A DNA stretch of 6,930 bases. It comes from a virus. Its lineage: Duplodnaviria; Heunggongvirae; Uroviricota; Caudoviricetes. Location: the IMG/VR virus record IMGVR_UViG_2778261572_000009, positions 1 to 6,930 of that record; one strand, 5' to 3'. The notes below the pieces were generated by a model, which saw nothing but the letters and a program-made list of their open reading frames with translations, had not been told where the DNA came from and made no database searches. The position numbers and the translations under genes are program-made. Positions 2,718 to 6,888 of the stretch are shown piece by piece; the first letter of the stretch is position 1; each line of letters starts with the position of its first letter.

Positions 2718-4178
2718 TCACTCATCATCTTCTGTTTCGTACTCCACATCAGAAAGCCTGACCTCAAGCTCTAAGGACGTCGTGAAGCCGCTATTATTCA
2801 GAAAATGTGTCACCTTAGTGATTGTCCAGTCCTGCTCGTCTATGACGCGCTTAAAGCCTGACACTTTAACCGGTGTTTCCGTGTAAATATCTGCCCGACC
2901 GGTAGCCAGGCTGATGGAAAACTCCGCGACGCCCCGTTGCAGTTTGTCCCACTTCGCCTGAGCGGCGCGCATGGCCTGCGCTTTCGTGGCATATACCGTG
3001 GTCAGTGCAAAAACGTTGTCAGCCTCACCGGCCATGTATTCACCTTCGCGCGCTTCCGGTACTTTAGGCGCTTTCTTCTGCGTGACTGGTTTCGCTTTCG
3101 GGTGCTCCAGTGCGCGCAGGTGTTTCTCTTTCTTTTTGCGTTTCAGTTTTACCTTCTGCTTTTGCGGCTTCGGGTCTTTGGTGTGTAACCACTTTGCCGT
3201 TACGCCGGTATAGGCTCCACGGTCAGCAATCGCAAAATGATGACGGTCACCGTCGCTGCGGGTGAGGGTAATCTGCGGGATTTTTTTACCGCTGGCAGTC
3301 ACCCCCTGCCCCGCTTTGAGAAACAGCAGTTTTCCCATTTTTACCGACACCTCACCGCCGTTGCGTTCAGCAAGACGGGTCAGGAATTTCGCATCAGACT
3401 CCTGCGACTGGTCGATGTGCGGGATTTTAATTCCGGCCAGTGACGGAGCGACACTGGCTTTCAGCCTGTTACGGGTGGCCACCCCGACATTGGACAGCGT
3501 TTTATGCCAGCCCTGCTCCTGGTCGATTCTGGCACGCAGACCCAGCGCACGGGCGGTGGCATACGCGGTGGCGGTGGTGCTGGTGACCGTATCCCATGCG
3601 AGGAAATCCGGCCAGATGACCATCAGCTCACGCTGGCTGAAATTCTGGCGGTAGGCTTTCACCTCGGAAATGGTCTTACAGCCCCATGCGCTGATATACC
3701 CGAAAGCGCGCAGCTTCTGACAGACGGATACCAGTGCAACAGCCACCTCTTTGGTGTCCAGTCCCGGCACACCGAGAATACGCGGTTTAACACCGGTTAC
3801 CGACTCCGCCGCCAGCAGGGCTTTCAGTCCGGTGTACTGACCGTTTTCGTCGGTGGTGCCGATGATATTGGAAACGGTCTGCGCAAGTTTCGTTTCCTCG
3901 TCGTCGCCGGTGCCGTCTTCCACACGCACGACAACGGTGACCGGTTTTGACTGGTCGGCGATGGCCTGCAACGATGCCGCCAGCGTGCCTTTTTTACCGG
4001 CCTTTGCAATTGCGCTCTGCACATTGGTAATCAGCACTGGTTTATTGAGGGGGAAGATTTCCGCATCCGCATCGCTGGCCGTGCAGACCATGCCAACAAT
4101 GGCGGTGGATACGGTGGAAATGACGCGGGTGCCGTCGTTAATCTCCAGCACCTGCACGCCGTGATGATAGTCACTCAT
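2718..4178 (-). CDS. Chimeric ORF: N-terminal ~233 aa of P2-like tail sheath protein (gpFI) fused in frame to C-terminal ~250 aa of P2-like tail protein D (gpD); deletion remnant, probably non-functional
   Basis: Residues 1-233 (MSDYHHGVQVLEINDGTRVISTVSTAIVGM ... GWHKTLSNVGV) match the N-terminus of P2-family tail sheath proteins from memory. From about residue 234 (ATRNRLKASVAPSLAGIKIPHIDQSQESDAKFLTRLAERNGG ... VRLSDVEYETEDDE) the sequence matches the C-terminal part of P2 gpD. The RBS GGAG (revcomp of 4187-4190) lies 8 nt upstream of the ATG at 4176-4178. The ORF is intact, but the FI C-terminus, FII, E/E', T, U and the D N-terminus expected between these halves are absent. Confidence 0.8.
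   Translation of the reverse strand: MSDYHHGVQVLEINDGTRVISTVSTAIVGMVCTASDADAEIFPLNKPVLITNVQSAIAKAGKKGTLAASLQAIADQSKPVTVVVRVEDGTGDDEETKLAQTVSNIIGTTDENGQYTGLKALLAAESVTGVKPRILGVPGLDTKEVAVALVSVCQKLRAFGYISAWGCKTISEVKAYRQNFSQRELMVIWPDFLAWDTVTSTTATAYATARALGLRARIDQEQGWHKTLSNVGVATRNRLKASVAPSLAGIKIPHIDQSQESDAKFLTRLAERNGGEVSVKMGKLLFLKAGQGVTASGKKIPQITLTRSDGDRHHFAIADRGAYTGVTAKWLHTKDPKPQKQKVKLKRKKKEKHLRALEHPKAKPVTQKKAPKVPEAREGEYMAGEADNVFALTTVYATKAQAMRAAQAKWDKLQRGVAEFSISLATGRADIYTETPVKVSGFKRVIDEQDWTITKVTHFLNNSGFTTSLELEVRLSDVEYETEDDE
3470..3490 (-). other. Deletion junction inside the FI::D fusion ORF (novel joint between sheath and gpD coding sequence)
   Basis: The sheath-like sequence ends at codon 233 (GTG, complement of 3480-3482) and the gpD-like sequence begins at codon 234 (GCC, complement of 3477-3479). 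The exact breakpoint cannot be fixed without the parental sequences. Confidence 0.6.
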
Positions 4179-4270
4179 CCGTTTAACTCCGTGGTTAATG
4201 GGTGCAACTATTTTCTGTTGGGCAGTGCATGAGACGCTATTTGACCTGGCTGGTCAGTGGATGAAACAAC

Positions 4271-4305
4271 AGATAAAGAAAAGGCAGGCAATTCGCCCGC
4301 CTGTC
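4271..4305 (-). terminator. Weak terminator-like hairpin plus T-rich tract between the orphan ORF and the FI::D ORF
   Basis: On the minus strand, GACAGGC-GGGCGAATT-GCCTGCC (revcomp of 4283-4305; 6 of 7 stem positions pair) is followed by TTTTCTTTATCT (revcomp of 4271-4282). Confidence 0.3.
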
Positions 4306-4497
4306 CTGATTTGTACTCACTCATTTTCCGACTGACAATTTACATAGCCAAAACGCTATCAAATCTGACAGTCTGCTTTGAGCGAGGAGCAGAGGTTAGT
4401 TTTAGTTAACCAAAATGATAAAAAGCAGTAGAAAAATCCGCTCATTACGTTATGGTTATAAGCCGCACATAATCATCCGAGCCAAATCCTCTTGATT

Positions 4498-5397
4498 TCA
4501 AAGAATTAGCACTTGCTCTTCACTAGAAACTATGGTTCTGACTTCACGCTCAAATATTGGATCCATTATCATTTTTCTATTTGTTGGAATAGTAAATTTA
4601 CCGAGTACCATGACAATGCTACTCAACGGAAATAATTTTGGAGTAACATTTCCTAATTGAATCGTAGGATATATATTAAAGCCCCCTTTTATCCTCATTG
4701 GCGAACCTTCAATGAAGTGTCGATAATTAAATTTCGCCATAGGGATTCTCGCCACATGCACTTTCATAATTACAGCAACCTGAGCTATTTTTACTTTCTG
4801 GAGGTAAGTTGACAATCGTTCTAACTGCGTTGTTTCATAGAAAAAATCAGACCACGTTACAGTACTTGTTCCAGTAACAATTTTTATGCTGTTTCTCTTG
4901 TTGGGGTGAGCTTTTCCATATTCATAGATCTCCCGTAAGCTATCCATGTTCTTCACATAAGGGGCTTTCCGACCTCTCTTGACATAAACGCGGTCTGTAG
5001 TATCAGAAGGTGGATTTGCCTGCATAGCTGCAGCTTTTCTGCTTAATTTAGAGATATCATCTTCATCGAGTATATGTATACGGAATATATTATTACCTGT
5101 GGCAAGCGCACGGCTGATATCATGACTGGAATCACTTGCATAAATTGTATTCAATCCTGAAGTTCCATACTGGCATAATTTGTCATGCGTGAAATTTTTT
5201 TCCAGTCTAAAGAAGGCGGGGATATGCAAGGTTTTATTAAAACTCCGACGAATATGGCTTTTGACATACACCAAATGAGCAGAGCAATTTGGGTCAGGAC
5301 ATTTGAGTGGATAGGGATTAACACTATAATTAAAAGTATTTACATTTACTAAAATCTGATTGTTATCAATAGCCTGAGTTATACGAATACCACTCAT
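4498..5397 (-). CDS. Hypothetical protein, 299 aa, AT-rich cargo gene in the prophage G-FI (Z/fun) variable slot; function unknown, candidate defence or lysogenic-conversion factor
   Basis: A 900-bp uninterrupted ORF with ATG at complement 5395-5397 preceded by GGAGGAG (revcomp of 5401-5407) at good spacing. Hand-counted GC is about 30-38% on sample lines, versus about 70% in the adjacent sheath/D ORF. It is flanked by 215-bp and 319-bp spacers with no convincing ORFs. I recognise no protein family in it. Confidence 0.75.
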   Translation of the reverse strand: MSGIRITQAIDNNQILVNVNTFNYSVNPYPLKCPDPNCSAHLVYVKSHIRRSFNKTLHIPAFFRLEKNFTHDKLCQYGTSGLNTIYASDSSHDISRALATGNNIFRIHILDEDDISKLSRKAAAMQANPPSDTTDRVYVKRGRKAPYVKNMDSLREIYEYGKAHPNKRNSIKIVTGTSTVTWSDFFYETTQLERLSTYLQKVKIAQVAVIMKVHVARIPMAKFNYRHFIEGSPMRIKGGFNIYPTIQLGNVTPKLFPLSSIVMVLGKFTIPTNRKMIMDPIFEREVRTIVSSEEQVLIL

Positions 5398-5536
5398 TAC
5401 TCCTCCATAAAGATAGGCGCAAGCATTTAGTAATAAACCATTAACATGCCGAGATCATACCCGATCATTGAAATGTAAACACTCCCCTAAGACGGCTGCT
5501 GGCATAATATTTTATGACATCAGCAATGCCCACCTC

Positions 5537-5578
5537 TGGCACAGAGTGGACTGTCAGATTAGGCTTTACTCTGTGCCA
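5537..5578. repeat. 11-bp perfect inverted repeat with 20-nt spacer between gene G and the orphan ORF
   Basis: TGGCACAGAGT (5537-5547) / ACTCTGTGCCA (5568-5578). It lies 35 nt downstream of the G stop and about 140 nt upstream of the orphan ORF start on the minus strand. No adjacent U-tract. Confidence 0.4.
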
Positions 5579-5612
5579 TAGATATGTAAGCCCACACTAG
5601 AGCTCATACAAC

Positions 5613-6140
5613 TTATTGCGGCATTTCCGGCCATTCAGGATTTGCAGGATCCACACGACTGACCAGAACACTATAGCGTTCCCATGCCTCCAGTCGACTA
5701 CGCTCCTCATCTGTTGCCATATTCAGCCTGACCGCGCGCTCCAGCGGCAAAATCACGGATTCAGCTTCGGAAAGCAAAGCTGCCTTATGTAATTCCGCCA
5801 GTTTCTGCTGTTCGTCTGCCGTATAAATCCGCTTAATCACGGCACCATCCTTAAACATCCATTTACCTGAGTCGTCAGCACGTCGGTTGGAGGTAATATC
5901 AGGAACCTCAACAACGCTAAAACCTTCAGGATTAAGCGTTGAAGCATCTCTGGTGATAGCGACAATAATATTATTTTCATCGTAAACAATCTTTATTGTG
6001 TCTGGCTGAAAGTTCTTCACTTCCTCATACCAGTTTTTTCCGTCCTCAGAGTAAAGCCAGATAACTCCGTGTTTCTTTGTTAACTCATACTGTTCCAGTG
6101 TTTTAGCGTTACCCGCTTTTATGTTCTTTAAGTGCATCAT
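5613..6140 (-). CDS. G: Tail fibre assembly protein (P2 gpG-like Tfa chaperone)
   Basis: The 175-aa product begins [23 protein letters not shown]...[20 protein letters not shown]...[34 protein letters not shown], matching the conserved N-terminal domain of P2 gpG tail-fibre assembly proteins. Its start lies 1 nt after the TAA of the upstream tail-fibre ORF, the usual fibre-chaperone coupling. Confidence 0.85.
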
Positions 6141-6141
6141 A

Positions 6142-6888
6142 TTAAACGCTCGCTACATTATACCAGGTGCCATTTATATACTTTTGAACGGGTCTGTAAT
6201 AAACGCCCGCTATATTATCGGCAGAGTTGGACCCTGTATCCTGAACATTAATACCAGACAATACATGACCTGACGGGCACTGGAAATTCCATGTTTGCCA
6301 GTTGTTCACTCCATAATATTGCTGTGACCCAAGTCGAACATCTTTCACATATCTGGAATCAAAATTGCCATAGTTGCCAGGAATAACTTGCGAGCCACAA
6401 AGCCAGTTACCGTTATTATCCATGTACGCCTGACCATCGGTGCCATTGGCTGTCCTTGAGTTATTAATCATGTAGATGCCAAATTGCTTGTTCCCCAGTC
6501 CACCTATCATGAACTTGCGGTCAGCGTGATTCTGGCGAAGCAACGCCTGAGCGCTATCAGTGTTAACTATATTTTTCCCAAAGATAGCGTTGTTATCGCG
6601 CATCTGAATCCACATACCATTACTGCTGTTAATAGCAAAACGGTCTGAAAGCGTCTCCCCTGAAACATTAAGGCCACGCCCCATCGAAACAGCGCCAGTA
6701 GCGTTATTAATCCATAATGGCCTTAATCCGTTATAAGTCCCCATGTTGTCACCGGAGTTTGTCAACATGAAGTATGTATTTGAACCATCATTACGAATAA
6801 AGAATCCGTAATTACCATAAGCAATACGTAGGCCGTTTGCTGATTTTGATATGACTTCGCCATTTACAATGGCATTGCGTATTTTCAT
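6142..6888 (-). CDS. Tail fibre protein, C-terminal receptor-binding module (gpH-like distal part), encoded as a separate 248-aa ORF
   Basis: The translation contains motifs I associate with distal tail-fibre domains ([18 protein letters not shown]...[17 protein letters not shown]) and sits immediately upstream of the cognate assembly gene G. The first ATG (complement 6886-6888) is preceded 4 codons upstream by an in-frame TGA and has only a weak Shine-Dalgarno sequence. Confidence 0.7.

Follow-up and report, generated by a model that had tools for sequence, protein, structure and literature searches.

What is the exact inverted repeat that lies between the tail-fibre-assembly gene G of a P2-like prophage and the unrelated gene behind it, and does it act in RNA, as an operator or as a DNA site? 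The window (the whole stretch of 6930 bases analysed) holds a P2-like (Wphi-type) prophage remnant adjoining fieF and pfkA, and every gene listed for it runs on the minus strand. Phage genes are H (C-terminal fragment of the tail fibre, 6142-6888), G (5613-6140, a Caudo_TAP protein of 175 aa equal to P2 gene G), the cargo gene Wphi orf44/gp44 (4498-5397, 299 aa), a 486-aa ORF in which N-terminal tail-sheath (FI) domains are fused to C-terminal gpD (2718-4178), and ogr (2418-2699), the last phage gene ahead of the chromosomal fieF (1280-2200) and pfkA (137-1195). The junction of prophage and chromosome (attR) must fall within about 2200-2418. An internal deletion has apparently taken out FII-E-T-U, so that the prophage is defective. 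The Caudo_TAP family match and the Wphi-type genes agree with the sequence-only reading, which had named G, an orphan gene and a P2-like prophage. The gp44 protein has no Pfam or PADLOC match, and its gene has a G+C content of about 37% as compared with about 55% in neighbouring phage genes. In sister phages the gp44 slot is filled by Shedu, HNH-nuclease and other defence genes.

The repeat consists of 5537-5547 (TGGCACAGAGT) and 5568-5578 (ACTCTGTGCCA), and direct complementarity confirmed the perfect 11-bp dyad with a 20-nt loop that had been noticed from the letters. Read in the sense of G (minus strand), the arm proximal to G (5568-5578) is TGGCACAGAGT and the distal arm (5537-5547) is ACTCTGTGCCA, or TGGCACAGAGT on the plus strand. 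The dyad begins 35 nt past the G stop codon, inside the 215-bp spacer between that codon and the 299-aa ORF (5398-5612), and stretches to 14 nt if one mismatch is allowed (5534-5547/5568-5581). No other perfect 11-bp inverted repeat whose loop is 3-40 nt long occurs in the window. One or more such repeats arose in 98 of 2000 dinucleotide-preserving shuffles of the whole window (P~0.05) and in 50 of 20000 of the 215-bp spacer (P~0.0025).

A G+C-containing stem-loop soon after a stop codon resembles a Rho-independent terminator, but the dyad differs in its 20-nt loop, has no T-run on either strand and drew no call from the terminator scan at 5537-5578, in line with the earlier view that it is no classical intrinsic terminator. 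In the G-sense just one strong terminator of that kind is present, at 4302-4282 (minus strand, AGGCGGGCGAATTGCCTGCCT then TTTCTTT), ahead of the FI promoter region. A sigma-54 promoter (TGGCAC-N5-TTGCW) was considered and rejected, since neither strand has TTGC at the required spacing: after TGGCAC the plus strand continues with AGAGTGGACT and the minus strand with AGAGTAAAGC. The dyad could nevertheless form a stem-loop in the 3' UTR of the late V-W-J-I-H-G transcript that would protect its 3' end from exonucleases or partially shield the cargo from read-through of late transcription. The distance from the G stop codon suits such a role, as does the predicted stability of the hairpin in G-sense RNA (-21.6 kcal/mol). 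The values are -25.3 kcal/mol for RNA of the other strand and about -12 for single-stranded DNA. Against it stand the missing U-tract and terminator call, the unremarkable folding of the G-sense spacer (z = -1.12), the putative V-operon terminator that the P2 record places 365 nt further on, and the lack of a match to Rfam covariance models at E <= 1 on both strands of 4100-6200. We return to this RNA reading below.

To see the repeat in other genomic contexts, loci were sampled by the G protein or the 3' end of G as anchor, not by the dyad. The block that contains the dyad is present in 162 of 167 G-anchored P2-like loci, ahead of at least 52 unrelated cargoes; in three of the 167, G is directly followed by a terminator. 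When each of the 52 cargoes is represented once, columns stay at 90% identity or more from the G stop codon through the distal dyad arm, and homology collapses 9-15 nt past that arm, through GGAGCGGAC-RTT to background. Conservation at G-cargo boundaries with different cargo thus holds, and among the three roles that had been proposed (transcript end, operator, boundary site) the site marking the cargo boundary comes closest. However, such conservation carries no information when P2-like phages are the only ones compared, since their G genes are themselves at least 90% identical. Phage Wphi and two other phage records share the 215-bp spacer at 100% identity. Of 5426 complete E. coli genomes, 712 hold the block and 117 the spacer in full; in about 600 others, as in about 90 phage records, the match covers just the G-proximal 75-90 nt, and many of these partial matches start at query position 140, i.e. 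window position 5537, the outer edge of the dyad. Canonical P2 carries the identical 11-bp dyad, likewise 35 nt after G.

These counts bear directly on the proposal that the dyad is an operator or other regulatory site for gp44. It does share the strand of gp44, whose start lies 140-180 nt downstream, and a sigma-70-like promoter match faces the cargo just beyond the dyad (5504-5532, minus strand; a consensus match only), with its -35 TGGGCA in the inner end of the left arm described below and its -10 TATTAT in the cargo. However, at least 52 unrelated cargoes follow this very dyad, with genes in either orientation (P2 fun(Z), for one, lies on the opposite strand), which effectively rules out a gp44-specific operator. 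Plasmid cassettes with unrelated genes carry the same dyad as well, and no regulator gene is linked to it. We therefore drop control of the orphan gene and regard a regulatory role towards gp44 as extremely improbable. The junction motif RTTGCTAAC of L-type arms is semi-conserved and -35-like, with a perfect TTGACA in one locus (L244); judged from these matches, an arm may provide half a promoter to any cargo downstream.

Other contexts of G were also seen. Among the matches listed, a search of genome contigs with the G protein returned distant tail-fibre-assembly homologues only. About a third of the close G homologues (90-93% identical; viral contigs L024, L026, L029-L042 and others) have a different context, in which G is followed by AAATTAAGGCCCGnTAnCGGGCCTT and a terminator-like hairpin, with no arms; this is presumably the tail-fibre module of another phage type.

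The stretch is already annotated in public records. In GenBank AJ512676-AJ512685 ('proviral Z-region'; Nilsson, Karlsson and Haggard-Ljungquist) it bears the label 'left inverted repeat'; the 'right inverted repeat' (AJ512680) covers 91 bp in front of FI. The window spacer is 87-95% identical to the annotated repeat_regions (AJ512676, AJ512680). The block of the Z/fun locus of P2-like coliphages is the same, directly 3' of G with its partner before FI, and we found no difference between the window feature and the Z-region left inverted repeat: the former is that repeat. The title of the accompanying paper (Nilsson, Karlsson and Haggard-Ljungquist, Mol Biol Evol 2004, doi 10.1093/molbev/msg223) invokes site-specific recombination. 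Articles citing Nilsson et al. 2004 or Odegrip et al. 2006 gave no detail on the repeats, a literature search with arm motif strings returned no relevant paper, and a 2024 survey of MITEs common to viruses and hosts does not mention the element.

The dyad does not stand as a feature of its own but is an internal piece of a terminal repeat of about 83 bp; its part as a boundary marker is retained. This left, L-type arm spans 5528-5610 (minus strand), from the outer terminus TGTATGAGCTC at 5610 to the inner end GTGGGC at 5528-5533 (consensus GCGGAC). Its inverted partner sits 1.2 kb from the dyad's arm at the other cargo boundary, an R-type terminal repeat at 4312-4394 (plus strand) with the outer terminus TGTACTCACTC from 4312. 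Read from the outer to the inner end, the two arms align over their full length with each other and with the canonical arms introduced below. Those of the window have in common the outer terminus, the inner 24-bp palindrome and the core motif AATCTGACAGTC, which in the left arm occupies the dyad loop (5549-5560, minus strand; AATCTGACAGTC in G-sense, GACTGTCAGATT on the plus strand). The core motif is common to left- and right-type arms, and its columns are nearly invariant in alignments A2 and A3. R-type arms have no dyad, which is confined to left-type arms; the right arm of the window has its own internal hairpin instead, with the AATCTGACAGTC motif forming one strand. The inner palindrome of the left arm, GTCCAC-N12-GTGGGC (5528-5551, minus strand; consensus GTCCGC-N12-GCGGAC), is an alternative fold that overlaps the distal dyad arm, its spacer, and ends at the cargo junction. 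Across arms it is 71.7% paired, with five pairs changed on both sides. The flanks of the cassette are AATAAGT on the left (5611-5617, minus strand), which takes in the G stop codon and is a degenerate target-site duplication, and AATCAGG on the right (4305-4311, minus strand), identical to the left flank at 5 of 7 positions. The terminator noted above (4282-4302) lies just outside the cassette.

Arms are not restricted to P2-like phages. The left block has matches between genes on plasmids of Klebsiella, Salmonella, Yersinia, Serratia, Providencia, Rahnella and Pantoea, and queries made from better-preserved copies matched 153 (L-type) and 65 (R-type) plasmid records, always in intergenic position; further copies occur in metagenomes and other prophages. 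The better-preserved copies begin TGTATTAGCTCAGAyTTGAyCTGAC, with TGTATTAGCTC termini, and these canonical arms form inverted L/R pairs with 0.5-6.7 kb between them. The outer terminus of the inverted repeats thus differs between canonical copies (TGTATTAGCTC) and the window (TGTATGAGCTC/TGTACTCACTC). Twenty-six distinct canonical pairs were inspected for 7-bp direct repeats at their flanks, which were perfect (7/7) in 14 and matched at 6/7 in four; none of 104 shifted controls exceeded 4/7. Canonical pairs hence carry a target-site duplication of fixed length, although some (L221, L224) lack a clean one, and the window copy reaches only 5/7 (AATAAGT/AATCAGG).

An empty site is found in three P2-like loci (L066, L068, L069) in which the order is G, terminator, FI, and whose G and FI match those of the window at 90% and 99% identity. 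They read ...CAC-AATAAAT-ACAGGCGGGC... and have no arms, and AATAAAT followed by ACAGGCGGGC is the predicted unoccupied target, matching the occupied site of the window. In these phages a classical terminator directly follows G, a further point against the dyad as the 3'-end structure of the G transcript. Among the 167 P2-like loci there was no cargo-free L+R palindrome.

Two other targets hold the same insertion with varying cargo size, CTATATC (L348, L351, L364, L366) and GATAAAG (L277, L289, L295), and these prophage or chromosomal loci repeat the behaviour of the P2 hotspot. In distant P2-like phages (G about 35%, FI about 65% identical), arms with canonical termini follow the G homologue or precede FI (L373, about 7368-7931; L365, 4186-6232; L376, 2682-3518). 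A further locus, L260, raised the question of a remote P2-like phage carrying canonical termini at the target seen in the window, but it has no G or FI homologues; its AATAAG flank probably indicates a shared target preference.

The diverged copies allowed us to ask whether pairing within the dyad is maintained. Across 45 diverged L-type arms the distal dyad arm (columns 43-53 of alignment A2) is kept, and 88.5% of dyad pair cells are standard pairs as compared with 23-49% in slid registers. Six of the 11 pairs have changes on both sides, with compensated examples in Salmonella plasmids (GACC/GGTC) and single pairs in L105, L257, L297 and L327. Seventeen additional pair types were observed versus 12.4+-1.4 in shuffles, none of 500 of which reached 17, while the covariation score was matched by 7 of 500; related sequences inflate such measures. 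The outermost two pairs are often open (broken in 13 and 11 of the 45 sequences). In a third arm subtype (L229, L272, L277, L289, L295, L311, L321, L329) the distal arm is changed to CTCAGTGCCA; the changed arm (CAGTGCCA) pairs with a shifted partner, TGGCACTG, lying upstream and giving a longer loop. Taken together, the alignments indicate that the inverted symmetry of the dyad is maintained across diverged copies, with moderate support from covariation. Such symmetry fits a hairpin or cruciform and the binding of a dimeric protein alike, in DNA or RNA.

Plasmid and metagenome copies keep the pairing although their overall identity is down to about 76%, and they show several independent two-sided changes. 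This, the pair-type diversity that none of the 500 shuffles reached and the rebuilt TGGCACTG/CAGTGCCA pairing of the third subtype all argue against the dyad being a functionless relic, a palindrome kept by descent and hitch-hiking only, even in active copies. That reading can draw on the near identity of P2-like copies through recent ancestry, on variants in P2-like phages that mostly break pairs without compensation and on the modest covariation statistics, but we consider it very unlikely. The same 45 arms speak to the RNA reading. A Serratia copy had hinted at pairing of G-sense RNA by G.U wobbles, an idea dropped when one-sided changes proved to comprise 29 G.U and 28 A.C cells, i.e. no strand bias. 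The L-type arm is nonetheless always on the G side in P2-like phages, and in a Klebsiella plasmid an arm directly follows a CDS on the same strand. An RNA 3'-end structure for the G transcript therefore stays a live rival, albeit one to which we give a low probability.

The interior of the window cassette holds gp44 only. No transposase was found inside cassettes and no recurrent protein family among bounded elements, and a search for an autonomous copy (clustering of ORFs inside or beside arms, partial matching of the outer terminus, an extra viral scan) gave no cognate transposase or recombinase in about 380 loci. Cargo ranges over CBASS, ars, cupin, SDR, GNAT and HTH genes, with Shedu and HNH-nuclease among the P2-type cargoes. 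Two 6.7-kb elements with perfect 7-bp duplications (L321, 6598-13308; L289, 4447-11154) carry a full type II CBASS with cyclase, E1-E2, JAB and a SAVED-HNH effector, plus a DEDDh exonuclease and an Mrr-like nuclease, and on a Providencia rettgeri plasmid an arm pair encloses an operon of arsR, arsB, arsC and arsH (L346, 4501-7628). From its arms, duplications and empty site, the G-cargo-FI 'moron' unit reads as a non-autonomous, transposon-like cassette. By the same sequence features the P2/Wphi copy appears as an old, degenerate insertion, and the window copy as a fossil that carries gp44.

Within P2-like phages, one cargo is found behind several outer-arm variants. As one target also occurs with different cargo, cargo must turn over between resident arms. 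The inner ~33 bp of the arms are nearly identical between phage and plasmid copies, and the turnover fits either homologous exchange via the 83-95-bp arms or site-specific exchange at the inner palindrome. In the latter case, GTCCGC-N12-GCGGAC would be an att-like crossover for cargo cassettes served by a dedicated recombinase. The junction is sharp, always after GCGGAC on the left and before GTCCGC on the right, but this is expected anyway, as the arms end there. Bare tandem palindromes that end a passenger region in L222, IS110-family elements beside an arm (L220, L301), the replacement of GCGGAC by ATAGTCATTCGAAC in several copies, one target with different cargo at three loci and the title of Nilsson et al. 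2004, which speaks of site-specific recombination, are all compatible with such a crossover. No locus examined has a recombinase gene linked to the arms, however, and homologous exchange via the arms predicts the same pattern; we rate a dedicated crossover site as improbable. An integron attC site was rejected as well, since the junction of GCGGAC with RTTGCTAAC is unlike GTTRRRY and the loci examined contain no integrase.

The palindrome and its surroundings vary in several ways. In L222 (8523-8640) the two bare palindromes, GTCCGC-agatcgctcata-GCGGAC and GTCCGC-tctgtgccaaaa-GCGGAC, are 17 nt apart with no remaining arm; the module of ~45 nt after them (GTTGCTTGCATCATGGAATGTTAGTTT...GAGCAGGCCA) also follows the left arm in several P2-like cargoes. 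The inner GCGGAC is swapped for the same ATAGTCATTCGAACCCTGAGAGTTACAC sequence in several arms (L214, L297, the R arm of L288 and L202 among the loci listed), and an IS110-family transposase gene adjoins an arm in two independent loci (L220, 2531-4076; L301), which suggests an IS110-type element targeting the inner palindrome. With respect to an autonomous copy, the IS110-family gene of these two loci looks like a secondary insertion.

A second insertion sequence family needed to be separated from the arms. On two plasmids the start of an L-type arm coincides with the final codons of an IS66-family tnpC. The idea that the arm is the IS66 right end, with GTTGTATGA as the last tnpC codons, was rejected because the IS66 IRR and 8-bp duplication lie 2.6 kb further on; another IS66 copy without an arm also counters it. 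The element on K. pneumoniae p1155IKP_1 (L223, 2385-7691) is a 5.3-kb member of the IS66 family with an 8-bp duplication, GACCTGAT, and its terminal repeats (GTAAGCG...) enclose tnpA-tnpB-tnpC, an L-type arm and the passenger fhuE, a siderophore receptor gene. With the IS66 repeats and duplication outside it, the arm in L223 is internal and not an IS end; most likely a cassette inserted into this IS66 lineage, in which a right-arm remnant is suggestive. L222, a related element from Pantoea, has permease, GNAT and LysR genes. The arms are accordingly no members of the IS66-family terminal repeats, having TGTAT termini and a 7-bp duplication as opposed to GTAAGCG and 8 bp.

The reading that we favour, and hold to be probable if by no great measure, is that the dyad is the left-end-specific internal repeat of the terminal repeat of a non-autonomous cassette (4312-5610) and a putative DNA recognition or architectural element. 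The cassette would have inserted between the stop codon of the tail-fibre-assembly gene G and the terminator and FI promoter of a P2-like phage. The role of the dyad in active elements would be to mark the left end for a putative transposition or recombination machinery, either as two symmetric half-sites about three helical turns apart or as an extruded hairpin. The arms, chiefly their inner ~33 bp ending in GTCCGC-N12-GCGGAC, may serve as portable homology for cargo exchange, which would explain fixed arms with variable cargo. The window copy would then be an immobile fossil in a defective prophage whose sole present effect is to offer such homology. As no transposase or recombinase for these ends was found in the loci examined, the mechanistic role of the dyad is one that we infer, and so are the enzyme, the DNA-level role and the route of exchange.

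More tentatively, and with somewhat less than even confidence, we propose that the G-FI (Z/fun) hotspot is one fixed insertion of an uncharacterised cargo-transposon family, in which the dyad would be the left-end signature for a possibly new enzyme. The proposed family has asymmetric terminal repeats of ~90 bp with TGTATTAGCTC termini and a 7-bp target duplication, and is spread over plasmids and prophages of Enterobacterales. What may be new beyond the GenBank annotation is to read the repeat as an end of cargo transposons that form one widespread family and have 7-bp duplications. If true, defence systems (CBASS and Shedu), resistance operons and small enzymes all travel with the family, which would be a testable vehicle for gene movement between phages and plasmids and whose arms offer a simple sequence handle to mine further cargo. 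A sizeable share of E. coli genomes contains P2-like prophages, and the variable loci of these are known reservoirs of anti-phage and virulence genes. The question of the dyad itself is narrowed to a DNA signal for a left-end enzyme versus an RNA 3'-end structure.

Among known systems, the cassette can be compared with non-autonomous cargo transposons, namely the mobile insertion cassettes (MIC231 of Bacillus cereus) and Tn3-derived TIMEs, described in part in PMC4133298. These likewise have terminal inverted repeats, a target-site duplication and passenger genes, no internal transposase, scattered copies and matching empty sites. Unlike them, the present arms are long (83-95 bp) and asymmetric, with the dyad in the L-type only, the duplication measures 7 bp, no parental IS or transposase bearing such termini turned up in the loci examined and cargo turns over between fixed arms at a given site. 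A second comparison is with Tn7, Mu and Tn552, which have TG...CA termini and long ends (about 90 bp and upwards) that contain internal motifs and differ between left and right; duplications are 5 bp in Tn7 and Mu, and 6-7 bp have been reported for Tn552. No TnsB- or MuA-like gene is linked to the arms, and their resemblance to the Tn7, Mu and Tn552 ends is one of layout, not of established sequence similarity.
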